Assembly (NCBI GenBank): GCA_030390025.1
Contig: CM059431.1
Span: 95,544,001-95,608,000, forward strand
From: Squalus acanthias
Taxonomy: Eukaryota
Direction: 5' to 3'
Length of the DNA stretch: 64,000 nt
Position numbers and translations under genes: made by a program. This document shows positions 23,085 through 60,314 of this stretch, in pieces. The notes below the pieces were generated by a model. It saw only the letters and a program-made list of their open reading frames with translations. It did no database searches and was not told the origin of the DNA. Each line of letters begins with the position of its first letter. Positions within the stretch are counted from its first letter, which is position 1.

Positions 23085-23983
23085 GGGGGAAAAATTCAGT
23101 TGGTTGCGCCTCCCGTTAGCGCCTTAAGAGGGCGCTAATGGGGCGCAAAGCATCTAGCGCCCAGGCGCGGCGAAGTTTGCGCCGCTCGCGAAATTAACTA
23201 GACATTTTGTGGCGGCGCTAAACACAACCGCCACGATCTCCTGCGCCGGCAGATCGTGACGTCAGTCGAGTGTGCAACGCCCCGGTATCGCCCCGGAGCG
23301 GATATTGAGTGGCGCCCCCTGCCTTACCGCCTGACGCTAGCAACGACAGTTTGAGTGGAGCGTTCTGCAGTCATGAAGGGAAAGGGGGAGCGCTATTTAA
23401 AGGTGACCGCTTCCTGCCTTTTATTGTTGGTGCCATTTTTGAACCACGCATTCTGAGAGAGAGAGAGAGAGAGAGAGACTTCTGGAGAGTTTCAACGTTG
23501 TGTGAAGGAGTTTTGGGTACTGAGCAGCACTTTGCAGGTTCATTTTGATTTGCCATTCCTTGTATCGATTTAGAAGAGACTGTGGGGGCTGCACTCTGAG
23601 CTCTTTGCCTGGTACTCTCCATTGTTCTTTCCAGCAGATTTGATGTGCAGGTCTCTCCAGGCCGAGATTCAAGGCTGCAATTAGTAGGATGTGGCTGGAA
23701 AGCGAGATTAACCATGCCCTTTAAGAACTGGCCCGTGCCATTGTGTGTGTGTTCCATTGCTGACTGACATTACATGAGCTTCGCCAGCGCTCTGAGGTAG
23801 CGCCTCGCTCCTCGGCCTTTGCGCCTTAAGACAGGTGTGAAGCGCCTGATTTAGCGCTCCAATCACCTCCAGGGGCGATAAAAGTCAAGTTTGCAGTCAG
23901 TGGCGATAATTAGTGCCAGGCGCTAATCTTTGCGCCCGGCCGATAATTGCGCCCCAAATGGGGCGATACTGAATTTCTCCCCC
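23085..23983. mobile_element. Non-autonomous Harbinger MITE family A, copy 1
   Basis: TIR GGGGGAAAAATTCAGT / ACTGAATTTCTCCCCC, TSD TAT, CpG-rich subtermini and an internal (GA)n. Confidence 0.88.
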
Positions 23984-23994
23984 TATGACTCTAT

Positions 23995-24849
23995 GGGGGA
24001 AAAATTCAGTTGGTTGCGCCTCCCGTTAGCACCTTAAGAGGGCGCTAATGGGGCGCAAAGCATCTAGCGCCCAGGCGTGGCGATGTTTGCGCCGCTCGCG
24101 AAATTAACTAGACATTTTGCGGCGGCGCTAAACACTACCGCCACGATCTCCTGCGCCAGCAGATCATGACGTCAGTCGAGTGCGCAACGCCCCGGTATCG
24201 CCCCGGAGCGGATATTGAGTGGCGCCCCCTGCCTTACCGCCTGACGCTAGCAACGACAGGTTGAGGGGAGCGTTTTGCAGTCATGAAGGGACTGGGGGAG
24301 CGCTATTTAAAGGCGACCACTTCCTGCCTTTTATTGTTGGTGCCATTTTTGAACCACGCATTCTGAGAGAGAGAGAGAGAGAGAGAGACTTCTGGAGAGA
24401 TTCAACGCTGTGTGAAGTAGTTTTTGGTACTGAGCAGCACTTTGCAGGTTCATTTTGATTTGCCATTCCTTGTATCGATTTAGAAGAGATTGTGGGGGCT
24501 GCACTCTGAGCTCTTTGCCTGGTACTCTCCATTGATCTTTCCAGCAGATTTGATGTGCAGGTATCTCCAGGCCGAGATTCAAGGCTGCAATTAGCAGGAT
24601 GTGGATGGAAAGCGAGATTAACCATGCCCTTTAAGAACTGGCCCGGGCCATTGTGTGTGTGTTCCATTGCTGACTGACATCACATGAGCTTCGCCAGCAC
24701 TCTGAGGTAGCGCCTCGCTCCTCGGCCTTTGCGCCTTAAGACAGGTGTGAAGCGCCTGATTTAGCGCTCCAATCACCTCCAGGGGCGATAAAAGTCAAGT
24801 TTGCAGCGATAATTGCGCCCCAAATGGGGCGATACTGAATTTCTCCCCC
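23995..24849. mobile_element. Harbinger MITE family A, copy 2
   Basis: Same TIRs and TSD TAT. Lies 11 bp after copy 1, with substitutions and a short deletion near the right end. Confidence 0.88.
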
Positions 24850-27074
24850 TATGACTTTTCAGCCTTTAGACCCATACGTTTGCCTAGCACTTTTTCTCTA
24901 GTGATAGTGATTGTTTTAAGTTCCTCCCTCCCTTTTGCCCCTTGATTTTCTACTATTACTGGGATGTTTTTAGTGTCCTCTACTGTGAACAGAGATACAA
25001 CATATTTGTTCAATGCCTCTGCCATTTTCTTGTTTCCCATTATTATTTCCCCAGTCTCGTGCTCTAAGGGACCAATGTTTATTTTAGCTACTCTCTTCCT
25101 TTTTATAAACTTGTAGAAGCTCTTACTGTCAGTTTTTATATTTCTTGCTAGTTTACTCTCATAAGCTATTTTCTCCCTCTTTATTATTTTTTTAGTCATC
25201 CTTTGCTGGTTTCTAAAATGTTCCCAATCTTCTGACCTACCACTAATCTTTGCAATGTTGTATGCCCTTTCTTTCAATTTGATACCATCCTTAACTTCCT
25301 TGGTTAGCCATGGTTGGTTCACCCTTCTCTTCGAGTCTTTCTTTCTCACTGAAATATATCTTTGTTGAGAGTCATGAAATATCTCTTTAAATGTCTGTCA
25401 TTGCTTTTCTACCGTCTTACCTTCTAATCTATTTTCCCAGTCCACTTTAGCCAACTCTCTCTCATACCTTTGTAATTGCCTTTATTTAAATTTAATACTC
25501 TAGTTTCAGACCCAAGTTTCTCACCTTCAAACTGAATGTGGAATTCTATGATGTTATGATCACTCTTCCCTTAAGGATCCTTCACTATGAGATGATTAAT
25601 TAATCCTGTTTCATTACACATTACCAGATCTAAAATAGCCTGTTCCCTGGTTGGTTCCACAACGTATTGTTCCAAGAAACTGTCCCGAATACAATCTATG
25701 AACTCGTCCTCAAGGCTGCTTTTGCCAATTTGATTTGTCCAATCTATATGAAGATTAAAATCACCCACGATTATTGCAGTAACTTTCTTACAAGCCCCCA
25801 TTATTTCTTGATATATACTCTGTCCTATAGTGTAGCTACTGTTAGGGGGCCTATAGAAACATAGAAGAAACATAGAAGATAGGAGCAGGAGTAGGCCATT
25901 CGGCCCCTCGAGCCTGCTCCGCCATTCGATGAGATCATGGCTGATCATCCAAACTCAGTACCCTGTCCCTGCCTTCTCCCCATATCCCTTGATACCTTTA
26001 GCCTTAAGAAATATATCTAACTCCTTCTTGAATATATTTACTGACTTGGCCTCAACTGCCTTCTGTGGTAGAGAATTCCACAGGTCCACCAATCTCTGGG
26101 TGGAGAAATTCCTCCTCATCTCTGTCCTAAATGTCTTACCCCTTATCTTTAGACTGCGTCCTCTTGTTCTGGACTCACCCGCCATCGGGAACATCCTTCC
26201 TGCATCCAGTCTGTCTAGCCCTGTTAGAATTTTATAAGTTTCAATGAGATCTCCTCTCATTCTTCTAAACTCCAGCGAGTATAAGCCCAATCGACCCAAT
26301 CTCTCCTCGTACGTCATTCCTGCCATCCCAGGTATCAGTCTGGTGAATCTTCGCTGCACACCCTCCATGGCAAGAACATCCTTCCTCAGATAAGGTGACC
26401 AAAACTGCACACAATACTCAAGGTGTGGTCTCACCAAGGCGATGTACAGCTGCAGCAAGACATCCTTGTTCTTGTACTCAAACCCTCTCGCTACGAAGGC
26501 CAACATACCATTTGCCTTCTTAACCGCCTGCTGTACCTGCATGCTTACCTTCAGCGACTGGTGCACAAGGACACCCAGGTCTGGTTGCACTTCCCCTTCT
26601 CCCAATCTATTGCCGTTCAGATAATAATCTGCCTTTCTGTTTTTGCCACCAAAGTGGATAACCTCGCATTTATCCACATTATACTGCATCTGCCATGCTT
26701 CTGCCCAATCACCCAACCTGTCCAAATCATACTGGAGTTTCTCGGCATCCTCCTCGCAGCACACACGTCCACCCAGCTTTGTGTCATCTGCAAACTTGGA
26801 GATATTACATCTAGTTCCCTCGTCTAGATCATTAATATATATAGTGAATAGCTGGGGTCCTAGGACCGATCCCTGCGGTACCCCACTAGTCACTGCCTGC
26901 CACTCGGTAAAAGACTCGTTTATTCCAACTCTTTGCTTCCTGTCTGCCAACCAGTTCTCTATCCAAGTCAATACCTTGCCCCCAATCCCATGTGCCTTAA
27001 CTTTACACGCTAATCTCTTATGTGGGACCTTATCGAAAGCCTTCTGAAAGTCCAAATACACCACATCCACTGGT

Positions 27075-28900
27075 GTGAAGAGAAAAAGATTAGTGAAATC
27101 AAGTGTAGGTCCCTTGCAGTCAGAAGCGGGGAAGTTATAATGGGGAACAAAGAAATGGCAGCCCAATTAAATGCATATTTTGGTTCTGTCTTCACAAAGG
27201 AGGACACAAATAAGCTCCCAGAGATGTTGGAGAACATACGGTCTGATGAAAGGGAGGAACTGAAAGAAATCAGTATTTGCAGGGAAATGGTGTTAGGGAA
27301 ATGGATGGTATTGAAGGCCGATAAATCCCCAGGGCCTGATAATCTACATCCTAGGGTACTTAAGGAAAAGGCCCTAGAAATAGTAGATGCATTGCTGATC
27401 ATCTTCCAACATTCGATGGAATCTGGAACTGTACCCATGGATTGGAGGGTAGCTAATGTTACCCCACTATTCAAAAAGGGTGGTAGAGAGAAAGCGGGGA
27501 ATTACAGTAAGCCTGACATCGGTAGTGGGGATTATGCTAGAGTCCATTATAAAGGATGTAATAGCTGAGCATTTGAAAAACAGTGACAGGATCGGACAAA
27601 GTCAACATGGATTTACAAAAGGTAAATCGTGCTTGACTAATCTACTGGAATTTTTTGAGGATGTAACTGGGAAAATAGATAAGGGAGAACCAGTAGATGT
27701 GGTGTATTTGGACTTTCAAAAGGCTTTCGATAAGGTCCCGCATAAGAGATTAGCGGGTAAAGTTAAGGCACATGGGATTGGGGGCAAGGTATTGACTTGG
27801 ATAGAGAACTGGTTGGCGGACAGAAAGCAGAGAGTAGGAATTAATGGGTCTTTTTCTGAGTGGCAAGCAGTGACTAGTGGGGTACCGCAGGGATTGGTCC
27901 TTGGACCCCAGCTATTCACAATATACATTAATGATCTAGATAAGGGAATTAAATGTAATATCTCCAAGTTTGCAGATGACACAAAGCTGGCTGGGAGTGT
28001 GTGCTGCGAGGAGGATACTGAGAAACTCCAGGATGATCTGGACAGGTTGGGTGAGTGGGCAGAAGCGTGGCAGATGCAATATAATGTGGATAAGTGCGAG
28101 GTTATCCACTTTGGTGTCAAAAACAGAAAGGCAGACTATTATCTGAATGGCAATAGATTGGGAGAAGGGGAAGTGCAACGAGACCTGGGTGTCCTTGTGC
28201 ACCAGTCGCTGAAAGTAAACATGCAGGTGCAGCAGGCGGTGAAGAAGGCAAATGGTATGTTGGCCTTCATAACGAAAGGGTTTGAGTATAGGAACAGGGA
28301 TGTCCTGCTGCAGTTGTACAGGGCCTTGGTGGGACCACACCTTGAGTACTGTGTGCAGTTTTGGTCGCCTTATCTGAGGAAGGATGTTCTTGCCATGGAA
28401 GGAAGTTCAGCGAAGATTCACAAGGCTGATACCTGGGATGGCAGGAATGACATATGAGGAGAGATTGGGTCGATTGGGCTTATACTCACTGGAGTATAGA
28501 AGAATGAGAGGGGATCTCATCGAAACATATAAAATTCTGACAGGTCTGGACAAACTAGATGCAGGAAGAATGTTCCCGATGGTCGGAGAGTCCAGAACCA
28601 GGGGTCATAATCTACGGATAACGGGTAAACCATTTAGGACAGAAATGAGGAAGAATTTCTTCACCCAGAGAGTGGTGAACCTGTGGAATTCTCTACCACA
28701 GAAGGTAGTTGAGGCGAAGTCATTAAATATATTCAAGGTTGAGTTAGATATATTTCTTAAAGCTAAAGGTATCAAGGGATATGGGGAGAAGGCAGGTACA
28801 GGGTACTGAGTTTAGATGATCAGCCATGATCTCATCGAATGGCGGAGCAGGCTCGAGGGGCCGAATGGCCTACTCCTGCTCCTATCTTCTATGTTTCTTT
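27075..28900 (+). mobile_element. CR1 element C, inserted antisense into element B
   Basis: Long RT ORFs from 27020 to 28809. Tail CCTATCTTCTATGTTTC at about 28881-28897. Confidence 0.9.
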
Positions 28901-29429
28901 GTTTCTCCCTTAGCTATTCTATCAGTTACATCCTCAAAAAATTCCAGTAGATTAGTCAAGCATGATTTACCATTTGTAAATCCATGTTGACTTTGTCCAA
29001 TCCTGTCACTGTTTTCCAAGTGCTCTGCTATTACATCTTTTATAATGGACTCTAGCATTTTCCCCACAACCGATGTCAGGCTTACCGGTCTATAATTCCC
29101 CGTTTTTTCTTTACCACCTTTTTTGAACAGTGGGGTAGCATTAGCTACACTCCAATCCATGGGAACTGTTCCAGAGTCTATAGAAACTTGGAAGATGACC
29201 AGCAATGCATCTACTATTTCTAGGGCCACTTCCTTAAGTACCCTAGGATGTAGATTATCAGGACCTGGGGAGTTATCGGCCTTTAATGCCGTCAATTTCC
29301 CTAACACCATTTCCCTACAGATACTGATTTCATTCAGTTCCTCCCTCTCATTGGACCCTATGTTCCCCGACATCTCTGGGAGGTTATTTGTGTTCTCCTT
29401 TGTGAAGACAGAGCCAAAGTATGTATTTA

Positions 29430-29947
29430 CTTATTACACTGTTCCACGGAAGCGCAGCGTAAGCTCGAGGAACAGCACCTCATCTTTCGTTTAGGCACGC
29501 TACAGCCCTCTGGACTCAATATCGAGTTCAACAATTTTAGATCATAACCTCAGCTCCAATCACATTTATATTTTATTTTTTCCACCCTTTTATTTGCCCC
29601 CCCCCACCTTTTTTTTCCTCCTAGAAGCTGGCAGCTGTCCTTCATTCTGCCAGTGGATTTCACACTTCTTTCAGCCTTAATCTGTCACATTAACACCACC
29701 TCTAGCCTTGCATATCTCTTAATGTCTCTTCATCTCCCCCTTTGTTCTTTTATCCCCTCCCCTTTTCCCAGCTTTACTCTGGCCTTAAATCTATTTGATT
29801 TCCGTCTCTTCACAGTTCTGACGAAAGGTCATCGACCTGAAACGTTAACTCTCTTTCTCTCTCCACGGATGCTGCCTGGCCTGCTGAGTTTTTCCAGCGT
29901 TTTCTGTTGTTATTTCAGATTTCCAGCATACGCAGTATTTTGCTATC
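29430..29947 (+). mobile_element. 5'-truncated Penelope-like element with 11-bp TSD
   Basis: TSD GTATGTATTTA at 29419-29429 and 29948-29958. Encodes LLHCSTEAQRKLEEQHLIFRLGTLQPSGLNIEF, a GIY-YIG C-terminus. Hammerhead in the 3' part. Confidence 0.85.
29814..29850 (+). ncRNA. Minimal type I hammerhead ribozyme
   Basis: AGTT-CTGACGA-A-AGGTC ATC GACCT-GAAA-CG-TT-AACT. Confidence 0.78.
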
Positions 29948-31221
29948 GTATGTATTTAATTGGTCTGCCATTTCTTTGTTCCCCATTATAAATTCCCTTG
30001 ATTCTGACTGCAAGGGACCTACGCTTGACTTCACCAATCTTTTTCTCTTCACATATTTATAAAAGCTTTTACAGTCAGTTTTTATGTTCCCTGCAAGCTT
30101 ACGCCCGTACTCTATTTTTCTCCTCTTAATTAATCCCTTTGTCCTCCTTTGCTGAATCCTAAACTGCTCCCAATCCTCAGGTTTACTGCTTTTTCTGGCC
30201 AATTTATATGTGCTCTCCTTGGATCTTATGCTATCCCTGATTTCCCTTGTCAGCCATGGTTGAGTCACCTTTTTTGTTTTATTTTTATGCCAGACAGGGA
30301 TGAACAAATTCTGTAGTTCATCCATGCGATCTTTGATTGCCATTGCCTATCCACCATCAACCCCGACAACTCCCACCAGTGCCTTCTTTCCCTTACTATT
30401 TCTCATCTCCACCCAAATTGATTCTACATCTGGAACTTCTGAGCCAATATCATTTCTCACTATTGTACTGATTTCATCCTTTATTGACAGAGCTACCCCA
30501 CCTCCTTTTCCTTTCTGTCTGTCCTTCCGAAATGTCAAATACCCCTGAATATTCAGTTCCCAGCCTTGGTCACATTGCAACCACGTCTCTGTGATGGCTA
30601 TTAGATCATACCCATTTATTTCTATTTGTGCCATTAATTCATCTATCTTTATCTGAATGCACGCAGCATTCATAACAAGAGCCTTTAATTTTGTCTTTTT
30701 AATCATTTTTCCCTACTCTGACCTTATTTGCTGGTGCACTGTTATGTTTGTGCGCTTTGTCCTTTCCTGTCACACTCTGGTGTTCATTGCCCATATCGCT
30801 ACCCTGCACTATTGCCCTGTTCTTTCTCTTTAATTTTCTAAATTTCCCCTCGCTTGAACCCCCCCTCCCCCCACTATTTATTTTAAAGCCCTATCTACAG
30901 CCCTAGTTATTTGATTAGCCTGATTGGCCTGTAGTTGCCGGGTTTATCCCTATTCCCTTTTTTAAACAGTGGTATACCATTTGCAATCCTCCAGTCATCT
31001 AGCACCACCCCCATATCTAAGAAGGATTGGGACATTGTGGGGAGAGCCTCTGCATTTTCCACCCTTACTTCCTTCAGAAACTTAGGATGCTTCACATCTG
31101 GACCGAGTGACTTTTCAACTTTGAGGACTGCCAATCTTTTAAGTACCTCCTCTTTAACTATTACTATTCTATCCAATACTGCTACTGCTTCCTCCTTCAC
31201 TGCTACACTGGCAGCATCTAT

Positions 31222-33556: not shown

Positions 33557-33942
33557 TATGATGCTATGATGAGTCTATTATGTGGCACTTTATCAAATGC
33601 CTTCTGAAACATCAACCGCACTACCCTCATCAACCCTCTCAGTTATTTCATTGAAGAATGCAATCAAGTTTGTCAGACATGACTTGCCTTCAACAAATCC
33701 ATGTTGGCTGTTATTTATTAACCCTTGTTCTTCCAAGTGAAAATTTAAATTTGCCCTGGATTATGGTCTCTTGATGTTTCCCCACCACCGTCGTTAGGCT
33801 GAATTACCTGTAGTTACCTCTTTTATCTAACTCCCCTTTTTTGAAGAAGAGTGTAACATTTGCAACCGTCCAGTCCTCTGGCACCACTCTCACATCCAAG
33901 TAGGATTGAAAGATTGTGGCCAAAGCCTCCACTATATAATCA

Positions 33943-36004
33943 CAAGATGTCAGCAACGAATCCAATGAGACATTCAATGATCCGGAACAGCAGACAGAGG
34001 GTCCCGCAGTGCAGCAACCGAAGAAGAAAGAGTCAAATTGGACCCCTCCGGAGGGTCGCTGCCCTAAGCTTGACATGTATGCTCAAGCTGTCAGGAGATG
34101 CATCAACGCCAGATTCATCAGCCACACTCACAAGACAGTCCAAAATGTCACCCGAGCACAACGCAACGCCATCCACGCTCTCAAGACCAACTGCAACATC
34201 GTCATCAAACCAGCGGACAAAGGAGGAGCCATCGTCATACAGAACAGAATGGACTATTGCAAAGAAGCATACCGACAACTGGACAACCAGGAACACTACA
34301 GACAATTACCCGCAGATCCGACCAAAGAACACACCCGCCAACTCAATAGACTGATCAAGACCTTCGATCCAGACCTTCAAAGCAACCTACGTGCTCTCAT
34401 CCCACGTACTCCCGGCGTAGGAGAATTCTACTGCCTCCCAAAGATACACAAAGCCAACACACCCGGACATCCTATCGTATCAGGCAATGGAACCCTGTGT
34501 GAGAACCTCTCTGGATACGTCGAGGGCATCCTGAAACCCATCGTACAGGGAACCCACAGCTTCTGTCGCGACACTACAGACTTCTTACAGAAACTCAGCA
34601 CCCACGGACCAGTTGAACCAGGAACACTCCTCGCCACGATGGACGTCTCAGCACTCTACACCAGTATCCCCCACGATGACGGCATTGCTGCGACAGCCTC
34701 AGTACTCAACACATACAACAGCCAATCTCCAGACGCCATCCTACAACTCATCCGCTTCATCCTTGACCACAATGTCTTCACCTTCAACAACCAGTTTTTT
34801 ACCCAAACACACGGAACAGCCATGGGGACCAAATTCGCACCCCAATACACAACATCTTCATGCACAAGTTCGAGCAGACTTCCTCACTGCACAGGACCTC
34901 CAACCAACGCTATACATCAGATACATCGACGACATTTTCTTCCTATGGACCCACGGCGAAGAATCACTGAAAAGACTACACGATAACATCAACAAGTTCC
35001 ATCCCACCATCAAACTCACCATGGACTACTCCTCAGAATCGGTTTCACTCTTGGACACACGAATCTCCATCAAAGACGGACACCTCAGCACTTCACTCTA
35101 CCGCAAGCCCACGGACAACCTCACGATGCTCCACTTCTCCAGCTTCCACCCTAACCACGTTAAAGAAGCCATCCCCTATGGACAAGCCCTGCGAATACAC
35201 AGGATCTGCTCAGACGAGGAGGAACGCGATGGACACCTACGGACACTGAAAGACGCCCTACTAAGAACGGGATATGACGCTCGACTCGTCGATCGACAGT
35301 TCCGACGGGCCACAGCAAAAAATCGCATAGACCTCCTCAGAAGACGAACACGGGACACAACCAACAGAGTACCCTACGTCGTCCAGTACTTCCCCGGAGT
35401 GGAGAAACTACGCCATGTTCTTTGCAGCCTTCAACATGTCATCAATGATGACGAACACCTCGCTAAGGCCATCCCCACGCCTCCACTACTCGCCTTCAAA
35501 CAGCCGCCTAACCTGAAAAGTACCATCGTTCACAGCAAATTACCCAGCTTTCAGGAGAACAGCGACCACGACACGACACAACCCTGCCACGGCAACCTCT
35601 GCAAGACATGCCAGATCATCAACACAGATACAATCACCACACGTGAGGACACTACCCACCAGGTACATGGTACATACTCATGTGACTCGGCCAACGTTGT
35701 CTACCTCATACGTTGCAGGAAAGGATGCCCCGGAGCATGGTACATCGGCGAGACCATGCAGACACTGCGACAACGTATGAACGGACACCGCGCAACAATC
35801 GCCAGGCAGGAGTGTTACCTCCCAGTCGGAGAACACTTCAGCAGTCAAGGACATTTAGCCTCCGATCTTCGGGTAAGCGTTCTCCAAGGCGGCCTTCGAG
35901 ACACACGACAACGCAAAATCATCGAGCAGAAACTGATAGCCAAGTTCCGCACCCATGACGACGGCCTCAACCGGGATCTTGGGTTCATGTCACGCTACAT
36001 GTAA
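33943..36004 (+). pseudogene. Penelope RT/GIY-YIG ORF with two 1-bp deletions near 34850-34875
   Basis: ORFs 34009-34986 and 34613-36004 join across the QY(A)NIFMHKFE(Q)DF region. Confidence 0.85.
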
Positions 36005-36361
36005 CCCCACCTGAAGTAGAGTCATCCAGACTCGAGTCGTCGCTGGCTTGTTCTCTCTACACAGATGCGACCTGCTGTAATTTCCAGCAAAAAAAGTAAA
36101 ACATCTTTTTGTTTTCCATACAGACTCCAGCAGCTGCCACATTTGACCCATTGTGACCCCACCTCATTGTCTATGTTGTATTTTGCTATCGTCTTTGATG
36201 TAATGTCTTCCTGACTGACCTGGTTGGACACCATCCACACCTTTGATTGCCGTGATTGTCTCTCTGCCGAGATGTGATAAAGGACAGTTAGAAAGATTAA
36301 CTGTAGTTGTCTGGCATTGTTCTCTGACTATTTATGCGGTGCCCATATGTATTTCTTCACT

Positions 36362-36398
36362 TCACCTGACGAAGGAGCAGTGCTCTGAAAGCTTGTGA
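36362..36398 (+). ncRNA. Minimal type I hammerhead ribozyme in the Penelope terminal repeat
   Basis: TCAC-CTGACGA-A-GGAGC AGT GCTCT-GAAA-GC-TT-GTGA. Confidence 0.78.
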
Positions 36399-36580
36399 TT
36401 TCAAAATAAAGCTGTTGTGCGACTTCTCACTTTTGTCCACCCCAGTCCAACACCGGCATCTCCGCATCATATATAATCATAGAATGATAGAATGATAAAC
36501 CACTGAAGGAAGCCATCGGCCTATTGTGCCTGTTCCGGCTCTTTGAAAGAGTTATCCAATTAGGCCCACACCCCTGCTCT

Positions 36581-40335: not shown

Positions 40336-41228
40336 GGGGTAGAAATTAGGTCGCGCCCCATTTGGGGCGCAAATATCGTCTGGACGCAAATATTAGCGCC
40401 TGGCGCTAATTATCGGCACTGACTGGAAACTTCACTTTTACTGCCCCGGGAGGTGAGTGGAGCGCTAAAGCAGGCGCTGCACACCTGTCTTAAGGCGCAA
40501 AGGCCAAGGAGTGAGGCGCTAACTCAAAGCGCTGGCGAAGCTCATGTAATGTCAGTCAGCAATGGAACACACACACAATGGCACGGGCCAGTTCTTAAAG
40601 GGGATGGTTAATCTTGCTTTCCATCCACATCCTGTTCATTGCAGCCTTGAATCTCGGCCTGGAGAGACTTGCACATCAAATGTGCTGGAAAGAACAATGG
40701 AGAGTACCAGGCAAAGAGCTCAGAGTGCAGCTCCCACAGTCTCTGCTAAATCGATACAAGGAATGGCAAATCAAAATGAACCTGCAAAGTGCTGCTCAGT
40801 ACCCAAAACTCCTTCACACAACGTTGAATCTCTCCAGAAGTCTCTCCCTCTCTCTCTCAGAATGCATAGTTCAAAAATGCCACCAACAATAAAAGACAGG
40901 AAGAGGCCCCCTTTAAATAGCGCCACCCCCAGCCCCACAGCGATTGATAGCGTTCCAGTCTTCTGGTCGTTGGATGCGCCAGGCGGTAAGGCAGGGGGCG
41001 CCACTCAATTTCCGCTCCGGGGCGCCACAAGGGCGTTGCACCATGGAATGACGTCACAATCTGCGCGCGCAGGTGGTTGCAGCGGTAAGTTTTAGCGCCG
41101 CCGCACAATCTCAAGTTAAGTTCTCGAGCGGCGCAAACATCGCTGCGCCCGGGCGTTAGCGGCTTTGCGCCCCATTAGCGCCCTCTTAAGGCGCTAACGG
41201 GAGGCGCAACCAACTGAATTTTTACCCC
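40336..41228. mobile_element. Harbinger MITE family A, copy 3 (opposite orientation)
   Basis: TIR GGGGTAGAAATT / AATTTTTACCCC, with canonical TSD TTA at 40333-40335 and 41229-41231. Confidence 0.88.
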
Positions 41229-41239
41229 TTAGATTCATA

Positions 41240-46700: not shown

Positions 46701-46902
46701 ATACTAGAGTTGAGATCGTGTCATGCGGATCGTCATCATGCCCGCTGACGCTAATTGGACAGGAAACCCAGAAGTAAAATGATAATGAGGTGGCTGAGTT
46801 AAAAAGTCACTGACAGATGCACTGCACATATTTCCGGGTTTCCCAAGTGCTTTCGGTCCCCTCTCCCCACTCCCAGCGCGTCTGCGCATTAACATCCTGC
46901 CC
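43761..46902 (-). mobile_element. Decayed Harbinger with Myb gene on minus and no clear transposase
   Basis: Contains DASLDVLLEAVR...KKLWLDVAKEV...CRKRFNDL. The exon 3 region (44.5-45.9 kb) is homologous to 5.1-6.0 kb. The left boundary is uncertain. Confidence 0.7.
45350..45752 (-). mobile_element. Deu-domain tRNA SINE, second copy, inserted in the Harbinger Myb exon
   Basis: Homologous to 12893-13365. A box TGGCTCAGTTGG and B box GGTTCAAGTCC on minus. Confidence 0.8.
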
Positions 46903-48040
46903 ATAGAGTCTACCGCGCAGAAACAGGCCATTCGGTTAAACTGGTCTATGCTGGTATTTATGCTCCATACGAGCCTCCTCCCACCTCTCTTCATCTAACG
47001 CTATCAGCATATCCTGCTATTCCTTTCTCCCTCACGTGCTTACCTAGCTTCCCCTTAAATGCATCTATGCTATTCCCCTCAACTACTATGAAAGGTTTTG
47101 ATAGAGTAGCTAGAGAGAGAGTGTTTCCACTTGTGGGGGAAGAGCAAAACTAGAGGCCATCAATGTAAGATGGTTACCAAGAAATCAAATAGGGAATTCA
47201 GAAGAAACTTCTTTACCCAGAGAGTGGGGAGAATGTGGAACTCGCTACCACAGGGAGTGGTTGCGGCGAACAGTATAGATGCATTTAAGGGGAGGCTAGA
47301 TAAGCATCTTCTAAGAAGAAGAAGAGATAAGCATATGAGAGAGAAGGGAATAATGGGTTATGCTGATAGAGTTAGATGAAGAAAGACGGGAGGAGGTTCA
47401 AGTGGAGCATAAATGTTGACATGGACTGGTTGGGCCGAATGGCCTGTTTCTGTGCTGTATATCCCATGTAATTCTATGTACTCTTTGTGGTAGTGAGTTC
47501 CATATTCTTACCATATTTTGAGTAAAGAGGTTTCGCTTGAATTCCCTACTGGATTTATTGGTGACTATTTTATATTTATAGCCCCTAGTTTTGGTCTCCC
47601 CACAAGTGGAAACAATTTCTCTACGTCTACCTTATCAAATTCCTTCATAATTTTAAAGACCTCTATCAGGTCACGCCTCAGACTGTTTTCTAGTAAAAAG
47701 AGCCCCAGCCAGTTCAGCCTTTCCTGATAAGTATATCTTTTCAGTTCTGGTATCATCATTGTGAATCATTTTTGCACCTTCTCCAGCACCTCTATATCCT
47801 TTTTATAATATGGACCAGAACTGTGCACAGTACTGTAAGTCTGGTCTAACCAAGGTTCGATACACATTTAACATAGCTTCTCTGCTTTTCAATTATATCC
47901 TCCAGGAATGAACCCCAGTGCTTGGTTTGCTTTTGTTATGGCCTTATTAACCTGCCTCACTACTTTTAGTGCTTTGTGTATCTGTACCCCTAGGTCCTTT
48001 TGCTCCTCTACTGCATTTAGGCTCTTATTATCCAAGCAAT
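46903..48040. mobile_element. Short CR1 3' fragments in both orientations
   Basis: Contains FFTQRV..WNSLP and CR1 tail sequences. Confidence 0.7.
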
Positions 48041-50170: not shown

Positions 50171-50249
50171 ACAAAAGATCTTTCCCTTTTCAAGGGCTGT
50201 TGCTGGTTAACGTGTACCAAAAGTCCATACCAAAAGAAATGTGGCTTAC

Positions 50250-50349
50250 CAGTAGCGGACTGTCCTTTTCTGTCCTGGAGTTTGAAATATTCTGCATATG
50301 GAAGGCAAGAATAGATTCTGCTTGTCCCTTCAGGACAGCTTCTGCGGCC
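50250..50349 (-). CDS. BCL9: BCL9 100-bp coding exon (C-terminal half of HD1)
   Basis: AAEAVLKGQAESILAFHMQNISNSRTEKDSPLL matches the BCL9 HD1 segment. Acceptor TTTTTCTGACTATAG| and donor CTG|GTAAGC. Ends in phase 0, in frame with the exon starting at 11957. Confidence 0.92.
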
Positions 50350-51399: not shown

Positions 51400-52535
51400 A
51401 ATACTTACAGGTTAGGTGCTAGTTTAGTATTTCTTGCTACTGTTTCTTGGTGTGTTGCATCACTCTGGAAAGTTCATTTTGTCTGCACAAAGAGTGGTCT
51501 TGCAGTGCTTTGGTACTTTGCCTCACAAATGGTCTGGCTGTAGACAGGGGTGGTCTGGTAGGGCTGCCTTTGGGGCTGGAGGACGAGGGAGAGCAGCAAG
51601 GAAGACACTACAGAGCAGGAGGATCTGCCAGAGGAGGGAGGAGGAGGAGGGCACGTAACATGAGGCCATATCCACAAAAGGTCTGCAGGGAGCAAGTCTC
51701 CTACATCAGCTTTACTGAGGAGCAATGTATTAGGCCACTTCGCTTCACCAAGGAGGATGTCACTGAGCTATGTCACCTGCTGCAGCCACAGCTCCAGCCT
51801 CAAACCGAGGCATGGACAACACTGCCTGTGGTCACCATAGCTGTTAACTTTTACACCTTTCAGGCTGCAACAGCTAACATCAGCAACATCTCACAGTTCG
51901 CAGTAGACAATCTATCAGGGAGATCACTGAGGCTCCTCTACACCTAGAGAAACACTTACATCTCCTTCCCTTTTGACAAAGCAAAACAGGACGAGAGAGC
52001 ACTAGGTTTTGTCCATATGACAGGCTTCCCCACTGAGCAAGGTGGCACTGACTGCACACACATTGCCTTGCATACTCTTTATCGCCAGCCTGGCATCGTT
52101 ATCAATTAAAAGGGACTTTACTACCACATTTTACAACCACAAGGAGAACATCATGCGGGTCTGTGCCCACTATCCCGGCAGCAGTCATGACTCTTCCATC
52201 CTGCGCCAGTCCTCTGTGCTGACTTTATTTTAACCGGGCCGCCAAGTTACAGGCTGGCTATTGGGCAACAAGGGGTAGTCACTCCATGGTTCATAACTCC
52301 AGTTCGGAAACTGGAGAGCTGGCCTATAACGACAGATATTCAGCCACAATAAACATCATCGTTCTCATGCAACGCTTCACTGCCTGGACTGTTCCAGAGG
52401 AGCTATGCAGTACACCACTGAGGAGGAATTCAGATTTGCCATTGTCTGCTACATGCTCCAGAACTAAGTCATCATGAGGCATCAACCCTTACCAACACCT
52501 GGGCAGCAACAAGTACAGATGGTGGGGGAGGAAGG
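51400..52535 (+). pseudogene. Decayed Harbinger transposase
   Basis: Contains RPYPQKVCREQVSY..FTEEQCIRPLRFTKEDVTELCHLL, HYPGSSHDSSILRQS and GWLLGNKG. Confidence 0.75.
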
Positions 52536-52542
52536 ATCATAG

Positions 52543-52803
52543 TGTTGAGGCTGCCGCGAAACACGAATGGAGGCTGAATCCATATGTGGAAAACAAGAAA
52601 CTTTTATTCACTGCATGGCACACAAAATGGCTGAGCTAGCTGCTCCCAGAATTCTCTGGAAAAACTCCCAGAATTCTCTGGGTAAAACCTGAGGCCCCGC
52701 CCCCTTCTGCCTTAAAGGTAAGGTGCCTTAAAGGGGAAGGTGCTGAAATTTGTCCACAAACGGAAGAGTGGATTCTGCCCGTTTTAGGTGGCGATCCGCC
52801 ACA
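52543..52803 (-). repeat. 3' LTR (261 bp)
   Basis: Three differences from the 5' LTR by eye. AATAAA on minus at 52613-52618. PPT GGGGGGAG lies just inside at about 52806-52814. Confidence 0.95.
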
Positions 52804-52823
52804 CAGCTCCCCCCAGAATCCGC

Positions 52824-55800
52824 TTAGGAGGTGTGGACGAGACGGTGTGGCGGTCTGATGGGCCGGCCGGAGCGGCTCTTGTAGGACGCCGGTGGACGTG
52901 GAACGGCCGGGCGTGGAGCAGCCGGGTGAACCGGCTTGAGGACAGGTCGGCCGCGTGGAGGTGGACGAGCTACAGGGACCTGCTCCCCGGGCTCCGAGTG
53001 TGCTGGCTTGAGTCGGTCCACCGACACTTTTTCGGTCCTGTCGCCCACTTGCAGGGTGAAAAATTTGTCCCCAGCCTGCAGCACCTTGTAGGGCCCGTCA
53101 TACGGGGGTTGAAGGGGTCCGCTGTGGGCGTCGTGCCGGACGAAAACAAACCGTGCCTGGTGCAGGCTTAGTGGGACGTGTGAGGTGGATTCGCCGTGTT
53201 GGGTAATGGGCACTGGGGCGAACTGCAGCGCCGGTGAGGCGAAGTCGTGGCGTTGCTGGTCGGCTGACCAGGGTGTCGTGGCGGTGGGCAGGAACTCGCC
53301 GGGTACGCGCAGCGGCTGACCGTACACGAGCTCTGCTGCCGATGCGTGGAGGTCTTCTTTAACCGCGGTGCGCAGGCCGAGGAGGACCCACGGAAGTCGG
53401 TCGGTCCAGGCGCCGTCTTGGAGGCTGGCTCGAAGAGATGCCTTCAAGGATCTGTGGAACCGCTCACACAGTCCGTTGGCTTGGGGGTGGTACGCTGTGG
53501 TGCGGTGGATGGTCACCCCGAGATTGCGTGCGACGGCGGTCCAGAGCTCAGAGGTAAATTGCGGACCTCTGTCCGAAGTCATGTCGGAGGGGACGCCGAA
53601 CCGTGCGACCCAGGTGCTGACGAAGGCTCTGGCGATGTCGGCGGTGGTGGTAGAGGTCAGTGGAATTGCCTCAGGCCAGCGTGTGGTGCGGTCAACGATG
53701 GTCAGCAAGTGCATGTGGCCTTGCGACGGCGGCAGGGGCCCGACGATGTCCACGTGGATGTGGTCGAATCTCCGTGAGGGGACGGTAAACTGTTACTGTA
53801 CCTTGGCCCGTTGGCAGGATAGGCAGGAGTTGGCCCAAGTACGCACATCCTTGCGAAGGCCGCGCCAGACAAAGCGGTTGGCTACCAATTTGATGGATGC
53901 GCGGGCGCCGGGGTGTGAGAGGTTGTGGAGAATGTCGAATACCCGGCGGCGCCAGGACGCTGGGACGACGGGCCGAGGTTGACATAGGGATATGTCGCAC
54001 TTGACCATGACTGCGGTCGGGCCACAGGCGACGTCGGCCAGGCGTAGCCCTGGTAGGTTGGTGGGTGCGGAGAGCAGATCCGGGTCGGTGATCTGGTCTG
54101 CTGCGAGTTGAGCGTAGTCGACTGCTAGGTGTGCAGCGTGGATGGCGGGGCGGGAGAGGCAGTCGGCTACCACATTGTCTCGGCCGGAGACGTGTTGGAT
54201 GTCCGTGGTGAACTCGGACACTGCCGCGAGCTGCCGCTGCTGCCTGGCGGACCATGGGTCGGTTGTCTTTGCCATTGCGAATGTCAGGGGCTTGTGGTCG
54301 ACAAACGCAGTGAAGGGGTGGCCCTCAAGCAAAAACCGGAAATGGCGGACCGCCAGGAACAGCGCGAGGAGCTCGCGGTCGAAGGTGCTGTACTTGACCT
54401 CCGGGGGGCGTAGTTGGCGGCTGAAGAAGGCAAGTGGTTGCCAGGCGCCGTCAACCCACTGCTCATACACGGCGCCGACCGCGTGGTCGGAGGCGTCCGT
54501 GGTGAGCGTTACCCTGGCATTGGGCCGTGGGTGCGCGAGCAGGGTGGCGTTGGCGAGCGCAGTCTTGGTGGAATCGAAGGCGGCGGACGCGTCTGCCGTC
54601 CATTCGACCGCCATCTTGCTGCTCCTGTCCCAGAGGGCTTCATACAGGGGCCTCATGAGGGACGCCGCTTTGGGGATGAAGCGGTTATAGAAATTCACCA
54701 TCCCGAGGAACTCCTGGAGGCCATTGATGGTGGTGGGGCGGGGAAATTGTTGGACGGCCTGCACCTTGGTGGGCAGGGGAATGGCCCCAGCATGGGTGAT
54801 GTGGTGGCCGAGGAAGTCGATCTTGCCCAGGCCGAACTGGCATTTGGCTGGGCTGATGATGAGCCCGTGGTCGCTGAGGCGCCCGAACAGGATGCGAAGG
54901 TGTTCGAGGTGTTCCTGCTTGGAGTAACTGGCTAACAGGATGTCGTCCAGGTAGACGAACAGGAACTTCAGGTCCCGAAGGACCGAGTCCATCAGCCGTT
55001 GGAATGCCTGGGCCGCGTTTTTGAGGCCGAAGGGCATCCGCAGGAACTCGAACAGGCCGAAGGGGGTGATTACGGCCGTCTTGGGGACGTCCGCAGGGTG
55101 GACGGGGACTTGGTGGTAGCCGCGCACCAGGTCGACCTTGGAAAAGACTGAGCGGCCGGCCAGTCTAGCCGAGAAGTCCTGGATGTGTGGCACGGGGTAC
55201 CGATCAGGGGTGGTGGCGTCATTGAGGCGGCGGTAATCCCCGCAGGGGCGCCAACCTCTGCCTGGTTTGGGGGCGATGTGGAGTGGGGAGGCCCAGGGAC
55301 TGTTGGAGCGACGGATGATGCCAAGCTGTTCCATGGTGCCAAACTCGGTCCGCGCGATCTCCAGTTTGGCCGGGTCCAGCCTGCGGGCGTGGGCGTACAC
55401 TGGGGGGCCTGTGGTGGGGATGAAGTGTTCCACCCCGTGTTTGGCGGCCTCCATGGAGAAGGTCGGATTGGTAAGGGCCGGGAATTCGGCCAGGAGTGCC
55501 GAGTAGTCATCCGTGGCCCGGGCGTGGCACTGTGACGCCATGTCGGCGGGTTGACGGGGGGCCATGGCGCCCAGGATGGGGGACATGGTGTTCATGTCCA
55601 CGAGGCGGTGATGAGGGATGTCTACCAGTAGGCCGTGGGCGCACAGGAAATCTGTGCCGATGAGGGGGGAGAGCACCTTGGCAGTGATGAACTCCCATCG
55701 GTAGCGGTGACCAGCGAGGTCGAGGGTAACTGTCCGGGTGCCATACGTCCGGATTTCCGAGCCATTAGCAGCAGCCAGCGCCGGTCCTCGTTCGCCCTTT

Positions 55801-56615
55801 TGGATGTTGAGGGAGGAGGCCGGGATGATGCTGTGCTGAGCCCCAGTGTCGCACAGGAACCGGCGGCCGGTTTTGTCATCCGTGACGAACAGCAGGGAGC
55901 CCGCGTGGCCCACGGCCATCGCGGGGGCTGGAACGGGGGTGGACTTGAAAGAGCAGGGAGGTGTGCACCGTTGTGCCCTGGCACCGAACCGTGCATGGTA
56001 GTAACAGTGGCCCGGGTTAGTGGGGCGCGAAGGCCCCGTGGGCCTGGTGACAGGCCCTTGTGGCCGCGTGCTGGATGGTGAGGGGCGCGCCCAGGCATTG
56101 GCTGCCAGGTCCAGAGTGACGTCGCGGCTGGAGTGAGCGGACAGCAGCTTGTCGGCCTCATCGGCCAGGGCTTCCAGGTTCGTGAGGCCGGACGCCACGA
56201 TCTCTGGGCGGATGCTGAGAGGGAGCTGGCGGATGAACAGCGTGCGGAAGAGGGATCCGGGTGGGCTCTCGTCGGTGAGGGAGAGCATGTGGGAGAGGAG
56301 GTCTGACGGTGAGGCATCACCGAGGCCTGGAAGGTCGAGGAGGTGGTAGTTTCGCTGATATGCCGAGGCCGTAAATCTTTGAAGGAGTGCTGTCCTGAGG
56401 TGTGCGTACTTGCCTTCCTCTGGTGGGTTCTGCAGCGTTGTCCAAACCTTGGAAACTGTGGCGCTACTGAGTGATGTGACGAGATAGTCGTACTTCGTCC
56501 CATCTCTGGTGATATTTCGCAGCCGGAAGCGAGATTCAGCTTGGAGAAACCAGGCTTCGGGCTGGTTTTCCCAAAACTCCGGCAGTTTCACGGAAACTGC
56601 ATTCGTGTCTGCTAT
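52824..56615 (-). pseudogene. Single gag-pol ORF with one in-frame stop and a probable ATG-to-ATA start
   Basis: Contains NAVSVKLPEFW (gag), LCDTGA (protease), YLDD (RT), TTDASD (RNase H), HHCC and SDRGPQF...ERFHR (integrase). A TAA at 53793-53795 separates two same-frame ORFs. Confidence 0.9.
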
Positions 56616-56640
56616 TGCAGTGCTCGGAATACGTTCTGAG

Positions 56641-56654
56641 CGTCGGGGTCACCA
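56641..56654 (-). promoter_or_regulatory. Primer-binding site complementary to tRNA-Trp
   Basis: TGGTGACCCCGACG lies 1 nt after the 5' LTR and matches the known tRNA-Trp PBS start. Confidence 0.85.
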
Positions 56655-56655
56655 A

Positions 56656-56917
56656 TGTTGAGGCTGCCGCGAAACACGAATGGAGGCTGAATCCATATGT
56701 GGAAAACAAGAAACTTTTATTCACTGCATGGCACACAAAATGGCTGAGCTAGCTGCTCCCAGAATTCTCTGGAAAAACTCCCAGAATTCTCTGGGTAAAA
56801 CCTGAGGCCCCGCCCCCTTCTGCCTTAAAGGTAAGGTGCCTTAAAGGGGAAGGTGCTGGAAATTTGTCCACAGACGGAAGAGTGGATTGTGCCCGTTTTA
56901 GGTGGCGATCCGCCACA
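56656..56917 (-). repeat. 5' LTR (262 bp)
   Basis: Direct repeat of 52543-52803. Confidence 0.95.
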
Positions 56918-57950
56918 ATAGAATCATACAGCACAAAAGGAGGCCATTCGGATCCTCATGCTTGTGCTGGTTCTCTGAAAGAGCTATCGAATTAGTCCCA
57001 CTACCCTGCTCTTTCCCCAAAGCTCAGCAAAGTTTTACTTTTCAAGCATTTATCCATTTTCCTTTTGAAAAATACTATTAAATCTGCTTTCACCACCCTT
57101 TCAGGCAGTGCATTCCAGAAAATGACAACTCACTGAGTAAAAAAGTTTCTCTTCATCCCCCCCCCCCGGTTCGTTTGCCAATTACCTTAAATCTGTGTCC
57201 TCTGGTTACCGTCCCTCCTGCCAGCGGAGACAGTTTCTCCTTATTTACTCGATCAAACCCCTCATCATTTTCAACACCTCTGTTAAAGCTCCCTTTATCC
57301 TTTTCTGCTCTAAAGTGAACAATCTGAACTTCTCTAGTTTCTCAACATAACTGAAGTCTGTCATCCCTGGAACCATTCTAGTAAATCTCCTCTGTACCCC
57401 CTCTAAGGCCTTGACAGCCTTCCTAAAGTGTGGTGCCCAGAATTGGACACAATACTCCAGCTCAGGCTTAACCAGTGATTTATAAAGGTTTAGCATAAAT
57501 TCCTTGGATTTATACTCTATGCCAAGGATCACATATGCATCTTTTAACAGCCTTATCAACTTGTCCTGCCACCTTCAAAGATTTGTGCTCATATACCCCC
57601 AGGTCTCTCTGTCCCTGCACCCCCTTTAAAATTGTACCATTTAGTTTATATTGCCACTCCTCATTCTTCCTTCATAGGAATGCATTACTTCACAGTTACC
57701 TGCATCAAATTTCATCTGCCATGTGTCTGACCATTTCACCAGTCTGTTTATGTCCTCCTGAAGTCTGCTAGTATCCTCCTCACTGTTTACTACATTTCCG
57801 AGTTTCATGTCATCTGCAAATGTTGAAATTATGCTCTGTATACCCAGTCCAGGTCATTAATATATATCAAAAAGAGCAGTGGTCCCAATACCGACCCCAG
57901 GGGAACACCACTGTATACTTCCCTCCAGTCTGAAAAACAACCGTTCACTG
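56918..57950 (-). mobile_element. CR1 3' fragment whose tail hosts the Gypsy element
   Basis: Tail ATCATAG|AATCATACAGCAC is split by the Gypsy element. Contains LYKSLVKPELEYCVQFWAPH. Confidence 0.85.
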
Positions 57951-58159
57951 CTAGCTTTTCAAACGTCGGACTACTCTAATCCCATTTCCTCGTCCTATCA
58001 TGGTATTCTCCTTTTAAATGTTGTTACATTCTGGACACTAAATTTAAAATCTGTTATGTGGGCTGCCGTTGGTAACAGGTACTGTGGGGTATAAATTTGT
58101 CTTGGTCGGTAGTGCAAAACAGGCAATAGCAAATCGCCAGGCCACCTGGACTGGGTATA

Positions 58160-59505
58160 CAGAGCATAATTTCAACGTTTGCAGATGACACGAAACTCGG
58201 AAATGTAATAAACAGTGAGGAGGATACTAGCAGACTTCAGGAGGACATAAACAGACTGGTGAAATGGGCAGACTATTCTAATTGAATTTTTTGATGAAGT
58301 AACAGGGAGGATCGATGAAGGGAATGCAATGGATGTTGTCTACATGTATTTTCGGAAGGCATGTGACAAAATACCACATAGAAGGCTGGTTAACAAAATT
58401 GAGGCTCATGGAATAGGTGGGTCAGTAGCAGCTTGGATAAGGGATTGGCTTAAGGACAGAAAACAGCGAGTTGTGGTAAATGGCTGCTTTTCAGACTGGA
58501 GATGGTAGACAGTGGTGTTCCCCAAGGGTCAGTGCTGCGGCCACTGCTTTTTTTGATATATATAAATGACCTGGATATTGGAATACAGAGTAGAATTTCT
58601 AAATTTGCCGATGACACCAAACTTGGAGGTGTGGCAAACAGTGATGATGATACCAATTGACTGCAACAGGACATAGAAAGGCTAGCAGAATGGGCAGACA
58701 AGTGACAGATGGAATTTAATACAGAGAAGTGTGAGGTGATGCATTTTGACAGAAGGAACAGGGAGAGGCAATATACACTTAATGGCACAGTTTTAAAGAG
58801 TGTGCAGGGATAGAGGGACCTGGGAGTTACTGTGCCTAGGTCCCTGAAGGTGGCGGGACATATTGAGAGAGTGGTTAGAAAAGCATATGGGATCTTGGGC
58901 TTCATAAATAGAGGTATTGACTACAAAAGTAGAGAAGTAATGCTGAACCTTTATAAAGCGCTGGTTAGGCCACAACTGGAGTATTGCGTCCAGTTCTGGT
59001 CACCACACTTTAGGAAGCACCTGAGAGGGTGCAGAGGAGATTTACCAGACTGTTTCCGGGGATGGGGGATCTTGACTACAAGACAGGTTGGAACAGCTGG
59101 ATTTGTTTTCATTAGAGCAAAGGAGGTTGCGGGGTGATTTGATAGAGGTGTACAAGATTATGACGGGTTTGGATAGGCTAGACGGGGAAAGGCTGTTCCC
59201 ACTAGTTGGTGGTACAAGGACTAGGGGACACAGATTTATGGTTTGGGCAAGAGATACAGGGGGGATGTGAGGAAAAACCTTTTTACGCAGCGAGCGGTCA
59301 GGACCTGGAATTCGCTGCCGACGGAAGTAGTGGAAGCGGAGACACTCAATGTTTTCAAGGGGAGACTGGATAGGATCTTGAGTGAAATAATCTTGCAGGG
59401 CTACGGGGATAGGGCGGGGGAATGGGACTGACTGGATTGCTCTACAGAGAGCCGGCATGGACTCGATGGGCCGAATGGCCTCCTTCTGTGCCATTATGAC
59501 TCTAT
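58160..59505 (+). mobile_element. CR1 fragments ending in a 3' tail
   Basis: Contains FADDTK and LYKALVRPQLEY. Tail ATTATGACTCTAT. Confidence 0.85.
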
Positions 59506-60314
59506 GGGGGAGAAATTCAGTATCGCCCCATTTGGGGTGAATTATCGGCCAGGCGCAAAGATTAGCGCCTGTCACTAATTATCGCCTCCGACTGCAAACT
59601 TGGCTTTTATCGCCCCTGGAGGTGATTGGAGCGCTAAATCAGGCGCTTCACACCTGTCTTAAGGCGCAAAGGCCGAGGAGCGAGGCACTACCTCAGAGCG
59701 CTGGCGAAGCTCATGTGATGTCAGTCAGCAGTGGAACACAGACACACTGGCGCCGGCCAGTTCTTAAAGGGGAGGTTCGATCTTGCTCTCCAGCCACACC
59801 CTGCCCATTGCAGCCTTGAATCTCGGCCTGGAGAGACGTGTACATCAAATCTGTTGGAAAGAACAATGGAGAGGACCAGGGAAAGAGCTCAGAGTGCAGC
59901 CCCCATATTCTCTTCTAAATCGATGCAAGGAAGATCAAACCAGAATGAACCTGCAAAGTGCTGCTCAGTACCCAAAACTCCTCAACACAGCGTGGTGCAA
60001 AGGTTTCGCCGACAAAAAAAGGCAGGAAGCGGTCGCCTTTAAATAGTGCTCCCCCAGTCCCATCCTGACTGCAAAACGCTCCCCTCAACCTGTTGTTGCT
60101 AGCGGTAGGACAGGGGGCGCCACTCAATATCCTGTCCGGGGCATTACCGGGGCGTTACACTCTCGACTGATGTCACGATCGGCCGGCGCAGGAGATCGTG
60201 GCGGTAGTGTTTAGCGCCGTCGCAAAATGTCTAGTTAATTTTGTGAGCGGCGCAAACATCGCCGCGCATGGGCGCTGGTTGCTTTGCGCCCCATTAGCAC
60301 CCTCTTATACCCCT
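59506..60314. mobile_element. Harbinger MITE family A, copy 4 (right end partly deleted)
   Basis: Starts GGGGGAGAAATTCAGTATCGCCCC directly after CTAT and is homologous to 40336-41228. Confidence 0.85.

Follow-up and report, generated by a model that had tools for sequence, protein, structure and literature searches.

The window analysed here (the whole 64-kb stretch of DNA, contig 7, positions 95,544,001-95,608,000 of the 3.71 Gb Squalus acanthias assembly) is crowded with copies of the CR1 long interspersed nuclear element (LINE), recognised as repeat families and through RVT_1 matches, and we studied the octamer tails at their 3' ends as insertion sites for other transposable elements (TEs). 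The 3' end of a CR1 LINE consists of a hairpin and an octamer microsatellite. About 14 such ends are seen in the window, each with a recognisable 3' untranslated region (3'UTR) followed by one to four NNTCTATG units, and together with upstream RVT_1 matches these features identify the copies as CR1 LINEs. The 3' ends of the CR1 copies themselves are ordinary and nothing unusual was observed in them. The octamer motif is described as conserved in amniote CR1s (PMC4316615). Three tail variants, (ACTCTATG)n, (ATTCTATG)n and (TTTCTATG)n, were distinguished. The window also carries a BCL9 exon, a Harbinger transposase open reading frame (ORF), a Gypsy element and a Penelope-like element.

A sequence-only reading of the window had listed six insertions at or in CR1 tails and taken these tails as a possibly safe landing pad for three unrelated TE classes. 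All six junctions are present in the sequence, no more than 1-2 nt from where they had been placed, and the target is indeed very small, with tails totalling roughly 270 bp (0.42% of the window); six events are far above chance. Four of the six events belong to one TE class, the Harbinger-type elements. The genome-wide tallies given below are pattern counts over the 3.71 Gb assembly.

Harbinger-type insertions in CR1 tails

The most informative site in the window begins with a CR1 3'UTR end and its first tail unit (GGCCGAAGGGCC..CTGTATAACTCTAT; 23049..23084, + strand), of which the last three bases, TAT at 23082-23084, are the left target site duplication (TSD) of the first copy of MITE A. This transposable element, of the miniature inverted-repeat kind (MITE), is a non-autonomous Harbinger-type element of 899 nt (23085..23983, +) with the terminal inverted repeat GGGGGA[A/G]AAATTCAGT and TAT on both sides. 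The following TATGACTCTAT (23984..23994, +) comprises the right TSD of copy 1, one tail unit reading GACTCTAT and the left TSD of copy 2. The second copy, of 855 nt (23995..24849, +), is directly followed by GACTTTTC, that is, by its right TSD, TAT at 24850-24852, and then the tail remnant GACT. The TAT flanks of the two copies therefore give the empty site AACTC-TAT-GACTC-TAT-GACT, in which adjacent octamer units were both hit. A tandem duplication of adjacent copies was considered and set aside on identity. Copies 1 and 2 are 96.8% identical, eight unrelated genome copies are 93.4-97.2% identical to either, and since the two are no closer to each other than to unrelated copies, two separate insertions are the simpler reading. 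Each of them contains a (GA)12 microsatellite (23455-23478 and 24365-24388).

Two further tails in the window are joined to Harbinger-type ends. A CR1 3'UTR end with tail (..ATTATGACTCTAT; ..GCCATTATGACTCTAT) at 59469..59505 (+) is followed by an inverted and older third copy of MITE A (59506..60308, -), which starts at 59506 directly after ..ATGACTCTAT, is truncated at its far end near 60308 and shows 87-91% identity to other copies. On the minus strand, a CR1 3'UTR end with tail (ACCGAATGGCCTGTTTCTGCGCGGTAGACTCTAT; 46903..46948, -) adjoins a Harbinger-like, unclassified element through its terminal 21 nt, GGGCAGGATGTTAATGCGCAG (46882..46902, -). Its end at 46902 (GGGCAGGATG..), unrelated to MITE A, abuts ..TAGACTCTAT of this CR1; the terminal 21-mer is unique in the genome, and the seven ORFs to its left gave no Pfam match. 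A candidate involving a second family, MITE B, at 33558 has a tail-like right flank (TATGATGCTATGATG), but its left side interrupts a CR1 body and it was not counted.

Genome-wide, the left end of MITE A occurs 34,141 times as a 39-mer with at most three mismatches and 10,300 times as an exact 26-mer. The word TCTAT precedes 1,067 of the exact ends and RTCATA, the same site in the other orientation, precedes 748, so that a tail-type flank is found at 1,815 of 10,300 (17.6%); the corresponding word frequencies in the window are about 0.13% and 0.04%. The 90 exact copies that come first on contig 1 served as an unselected sample, and 17 of them lie in CR1 tails (95% interval 11-29%), seven in one orientation and ten in the other. 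Among 30 copies flanked by TCTAT, 24 directly follow a CR1 3'UTR, three come after another MITE end and exactly one tail unit, and three lie elsewhere. The right end was located for 25 tail copies, 20 of which repeat TAT on the right before continuing into GAYTCT.., and the downstream flanks of the tail copies are all different, with several CR1 subfamilies represented. Because the tail resumes past the MITE and the flanks differ, many independent entries into existing tails must have taken place. MITEs were thus inserted into pre-existing tails, with duplication of TAT or ATA and tail sequence on both sides.

The strength of the preference was measured with a uniform test that counts element ends located 5-35 nt downstream of CCTCYTTYTGTGC, a word of the CR1 3'UTR with 105,625 sites. 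For 19-mer ends of MITE A, 833 of 14,416 fall in this interval against 6.4 expected, a 131-fold excess. Viewed from the CR1 side, 1,641 of 9,119 exact copies of CTTTCTGTGCTGTATAACTCTAT (18%, one subfamily) are interrupted exactly after CTCTAT by GGGG or GGGC, GGGS being the start of MITE A-type elements. We also compared the rates per site. A background of 122 kb was assembled from the window and the outer flanks of the sampled loci L001-L030; in about 122-123 kb of such sequence, 20 of 79 TCTATG words lie in CR1 tails, against 27 of 30 MITE A insertions between TCTAT and G, which gives a per-site rate ratio of about 26 (binomial P about 1e-13). Insertion rates per site are therefore unequal inside and outside tails, and the equality that the sequence-only reading had named as speaking against a preference was not found for Harbinger-type elements. 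MITE B (GGGCTGGATTTTGAATGACC) carries a tail-type hexamer prefix on 291 of 4,261 ends (6.8%). Strict site-specificity, with most copies in one target, does not hold at 17.6% for MITE A and 6.8% for MITE B, the remainder of both being dispersed. One sampled locus (L039) has MITE A in a CR1 tail, then ATAGAGTCATA, then a MITE A end in inverted orientation; this head-to-head pair, with its tail unit inverted, is possibly a rearrangement between two tail insertions.

Target motif and tail type

A perfect 3-nt duplication of variable, A/T-rich sequence flanks 61 of the 75 MITE A copies for which both ends were located, and outside tails its spectrum includes ATA, ATG, AAA, TAA, CAT and TTA. Aligning 46 non-tail sites, from which one member of each of two duplicate-flank pairs had been excluded, yields the palindrome-like motif tAAgAnAC-WWW-GTnTcTTa; 39 of the 46 have A at -4, 39 have T at +4 and 31 have G at +1. 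The terminal inverted repeats of MITE A, GGGGGAAAAATTCAGT and GGGGGAGAAATTCAGT, agree at 15 of 16 positions (6 window matches versus 0.11 expected). A 3-bp TSD is given for Harbinger in PMC9179366. MITE A thus shows a 3-bp A/T-rich TSD, terminal inverted repeats and an extended palindromic target, as PIF/Harbinger elements do, and its transposase probably belongs to the Harbinger superfamily; because an autonomous partner was not found, the label draws on three features, its 3-nt duplication, its ends and its target motif.

A weight matrix trained on the non-tail sites alone scores the ACTC tail, TATGACTC-TAT-GACTCTAT, at 7.1 nats, among the top six or so of 64,000 window positions; the ATTC tail scores 5.9 and the TTTC tail 3.6. 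The actual use of the three tail types follows the same order. Intact double-unit sites number 11,608 for ACTC (ACTCTATGACTC), 58,297 for ATTC (ATTCTATGATTC) and 69,413 for TTTC (TTTCTATGTTTC) genome-wide, and the 27 forward tail insertions of MITE A are distributed as 21, 5 and 1, respectively; the first 100 reverse insertions comprise 89 with GTCATA and 11 with ATCATA. Extrapolated to hits per site, these values are about 0.12 for ACTC, 0.0045 for ATTC and about 0.0005-0.001 for TTTC. The one-base change between ACTC and ATTC is accordingly associated with a rate difference of about 27-fold, and the change between ACTC and TTTC with one of about 100-fold. The tail insertions are independent of each other, and their bias exceeds 100-fold and is sensitive to single bases of the tail unit.

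Since tails that ought to be equally harmless differ about 27-fold upon a one-base change, sequence recognition at integration, and not survival in a safe place, is the more fitting cause, and we infer that the bias is set by transposase-DNA recognition rather than by later selection. The 'safe harbour' of the sequence-only reading is thereby unneeded, as the hit rates of tail types that ought to be equally neutral are about 27-fold and about 100-fold apart and rank as the motif predicts. In the mechanism that we propose, the transposase of MITE A, MITE B and their relatives would prefer tAAgAnAC-WWW-GTnTcTTa everywhere and duplicate the central 3 nt, and GACTC-TAT-GACTCT would be a very good instance of this general Harbinger-type target; CR1 tails would be over-hit because the tail unit fits it. 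It is thus highly probable that the CR1 octamer tail, above all (ACTCTATG)n, is a genome-wide hot spot for PIF/Harbinger-type MITEs by virtue of matching the transposase target.

Several points weigh against this explanation. Intact tail-like sites hold 1.4% of the matrix likelihood mass in the 122-kb background, and the matrix predicts about 0.6% of insertions in ACTC sites, compared to about 13.7% observed, a gap of 20-25-fold. Similarly, a ratio of about 3-fold is predicted between ACTC and ATTC and about 27-fold is observed, so that a matrix of independent positions captures the rank order and not the effect size. Possible sources of the gap are dependence between positions, to which the recurrence of GACTC half-sites at non-tail sites is relevant, the tandem layout of the units, unequal ages of CR1 subfamilies or an adaptation to the tail. 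Different ages of CR1 subfamilies relative to the MITE burst could also inflate the differences between tail types. The numerators per tail type were extrapolated from samples of 30 and 100 rows, and the background estimates include the flagged window itself. Finally, no autonomous element with MITE A ends was found, although no genome-wide search for a partner was made, and the DDE_Tnp_4 element of the window has ends unlike those of MITE A.

The unexplained part of the enrichment leaves some room for a second reading, in which Harbinger lineages have adapted to the CR1 tail itself. On this reading, their effective preference for GACTC-TAT-GACTC lies about 20-25 times above what the general motif predicts; about a quarter of the ACTC-type tail units are already occupied, with adjacent units often hit twice. 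We regard such an adaptation as unlikely. If true, a DNA transposon would be using a microsatellite that serves recognition by a LINE reverse transcriptase as a renewable and harmless docking site, and Penelope-like elements may use the same tail through 4-nt microhomology priming.

Gypsy and Penelope-like elements and the remaining explanations

Within the 64 kb, each of the three TE classes does have a junction at or in a CR1 tail, and this is the observation from which a shared safe-harbour landing pad for Harbinger, Gypsy and Penelope elements had been proposed. The Gypsy case is a Ty3/Gypsy retrotransposon in a minus-strand CR1 tail (52543..56917, -), with long terminal repeats (LTRs) of 262 nt at 52543-52804 and 56656-56917 that begin with TG and end with CA. 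It has RVT_1, RT_RNaseH, Integrase_H2C2 and rve matches in the RT-RNase H-integrase order of Ty3/Gypsy elements and a 4-nt TSD, ATAG, at 52539-52542 and 56918-56921. The element interrupts ..GTATGATT-CTAT-GATCC of the CR1 tail, of which the 3'UTR end and split tail continue at 56918..56964 (-; reverse complement CCGAATGGCCTCCTTTTGTGCTGTATGATTCTAT), and before the insertion the site read as the reverse complement of CCGAATGGCCTCCTTTTGTGCTGTATGATTCTATGATCC, which is CR1 tail sequence. Over the 209 nt compared, the two LTRs of the element show 99% identity, and the insertion is therefore comparatively recent.

Genome-wide, the 5' end of this LTR occurs 5,552 times as a 31-mer with at most three mismatches and 4,169 times as an exact 20-mer. 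We sampled 60 LTR ends (the outer member of a pair, or a singleton), nine of which proved to be internal, and among the remaining 51 external flanks one (L180) lies in a CR1 tail. In the uniform test, three LTR 5' ends and two LTR 3' ends are found 5-35 nt after CCTCYTTYTGTGC, and one of these belongs to the Gypsy copy of the window; taking 55-60% of ends as external, about 2.0-2.2 would be expected (P 0.05-0.18). The five junctions are at scattered positions in or beyond the tail. The proposed preference of Gypsy is thus not borne out: it has no demonstrable preference for CR1 tails, and its copy in the window landed in one by chance.

The Penelope-like element (33943..36469, +) is 5'-truncated, with the TSD TATATAATCA at 33933-33942 and 36470-36479. 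Directly beside this TSD stands a CR1-like 3' end with a tail of the (ATTCTATC)n type (36480..36560, -), and the insertion adjoins the reverse-complement tail TAGAATGATAGAATGATAAACC rather than lying inside it. Its translation contains YIRYIDDIFF, with the YIDD box of reverse transcriptases, and VVYLIRC..YIGET..R..GH, which resembles a GIY-YIG C-terminus; these motif names were read by eye, and the ORFs have zero Pfam matches even at E 10. The 3' end occurs 50,033 times as a 29-mer with at most two mismatches and 24,908 times as an exact 16-mer. None of 40 sampled 3' flanks is inside a tail and one (L218) is 14 nt from a reverse-complement tail.

An excess of Penelope 3' ends is nevertheless present near reverse-complement CR1 3'UTR motifs. 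The CR1 word in reverse complement follows 36 ends at a distance of 0-35 nt, where 12.8 would be expected (2.8-fold), and these ends make up 0.14% of the 24,908 copies. Half of these junctions (18 of 36, versus 0.35 expected) share a single register, in which ..GCATCA meets TAGAAT..TACAGCACAG and with which 36460-36500 of the window can be compared; the remaining 35 registers hold 18 against 12.4 expected, which is not significant. The terminal ATCA of Penelope pairs with TGAT of the tail in a 4-nt overlap, and the shared register can plausibly be ascribed to microhomology in the course of target-primed reverse transcription; either element could be the inserter. The CR1 parts differ among these cases, which therefore represent separate events. 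The effect is real and tiny, at most a weak microhomology effect, and Penelope does not qualify as the tail-targeting class it had been thought to be.

Taken across classes, the landing-pad claim stands for Harbinger-type elements (131-fold) and falls for Gypsy and Penelope, leaving one class and not three. The Penelope excess, half of it in a single register, and the three junctions within the window do speak for a shared pad, but the Gypsy junctions are few and scattered, none of the 40 sampled Penelope flanks lies inside a tail, and the preference of Harbinger-type elements exceeds these effects by two orders of magnitude. A shared pad for all three classes is accordingly very improbable, and a general multi-class safe-harbour principle is unsupported.

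The Gypsy and Penelope results also bear on a retention bias, by which insertion would be near-random, with copies in neutral CR1 tails surviving and others being purged. CR1 tails are presumably neutral and the weight matrix under-predicts the enrichment, both of which would suit this idea. However, little or no bias is seen in Gypsy and Penelope elements, on which the same selection would act, and a bias of more than 100-fold requires the loss of over 99% of all other insertions in a repeat-dominated genome of 3.7 Gb. Retention likewise does not agree with insertions confined to one exact nucleotide position of the octamer, nor with equally neutral ACTC, ATTC and TTTC tails that differ about 27-fold and about 100-fold per site. 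We consider it very improbable.

LINEs with microsatellite tails are able to prime by microhomology, and CR1 might thus have retrotransposed beside existing MITE ends, its tail priming on the flank, or a composite of CR1 tail and MITE might have been copied. Two sampled MITE pairs (L001/L021 and L028/L030) do share flanks, sitting in another repeat, but neither course of events can well be upheld given that in 20 of 25 copies tail sequence resumes past the MITE and 3 nt are duplicated, that each downstream flank is unique and more than one CR1 subfamily is represented, that two different MITEs occupy adjacent units of one tail in the window and at L031, L032, L040 and L052, and that the two copies in the window are 96.8% identical, within the 93.4-97.2% of unrelated copies.

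Other Harbinger-type features of the window lie outside the tails. An end of another MITE (61700..61720, +; reverse complement GGGCTCGATTTTCC..) is inserted between TCTAT and G inside an antisense CR1, directly after GCTTTTGTACTCTAT. This position in the antisense CR1 body, following GCTTTTGTACTCTAT and before G, is a second recurrent Harbinger hot spot, seen at 61700-61723 of the window and at the sampled loci L045, L059, L012 (second half) and L069, and it is used by different MITE families in diverged CR1 copies; it fits the same sequence-driven targeting. A diverged relative of MITE A at 40338-41228, with the ends GGGGTAGAAATTAGG and GGGGTAAAAATTCAGT, lies outside tails in CCAGAC-TTA-GATTC, where TTA is its TSD, and 11 nt past it, from 41240, another Harbinger-like end, GGCCGGGAAATTCG, begins. 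Nested in a CR1 ORF2, an element of about 4.2 kb (3023-7233) has perfect 14-nt inverted ends, GCCGGAATTTTCAT, and a DDE_Tnp_4 ORF at 4162-4782 (E 1.5e-29), and is a Harbinger family different from MITE A. The host-gene exon among these repeats is a long open frame (9561-11957, -) with a BCL9 domain (E 1.4e-19).

Comparison with known systems

The preference described here indicates that one transposon family can shape where another accumulates, as an abundant LINE tail that chances to match takes up about one sixth of the insertions, which number more than 34,000, and in one CR1 subfamily about 18% of the tails are interrupted. For annotators, it explains recurrent CR1-MITE-MITE composites in shark-type genomes, which should not be taken as new composite elements. 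For the development of transposon tools, the ACTC and ATTC tails offer a natural, single-base-sensitive readout of Harbinger target recognition. No paper describing Harbinger insertions in CR1 tails was found in the literature searched; the CR1-tail case is a new example of the extended target specificity already known for Harbinger elements, and repeat-targeting transposons were known as well.

In the PIF/mPIF system of maize, element and MITE share a 9-bp palindromic target around the 3-nt duplication TTA. This resembles the present case in having an extended palindromic target centred on a 3-nt duplication and differs in being a plant system, for which we know of no link to a LINE tail. Transposons that target repeats also exist, such as Micron in (TA)n of rice and LINEs specific for microsatellites or for another transposon. 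There, too, it is through the sequence preference of a mobile element that a simple repeat or a second TE becomes its main landing site. Most or all copies of such elements are in their target, however, whereas about 18% are here and the rest follow a looser form of the same motif. With respect to CR1 LINE ends, it is the ACTCTATG variant, the rarer tail type in this genome, that is preferentially hit.

A close likeness is to Harbinger3_DR, the reconstructed Harbinger of zebrafish, for which a review gives the palindromic target AAACACCWGGTCTTT with half-sites AAAsAC and GTsTTT (PMC3016246). On that description, both systems combine a 3-nt duplication with a strong preference for an extended palindromic target, and the half-sites found here, A-[G/A]-A-n-A-C and G-T-n-T-[C/T]-T, are almost those of Harbinger3_DR; its central triplet is given there as CWG, in contrast to the A/T-rich triplet seen here (TAT or ATA in tails). 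The present elements further differ in being high-copy non-autonomous derivatives, with at least 34,141 left ends of MITE A at three or fewer mismatches, and in that their best natural target is supplied in bulk by the tail of another transposon.

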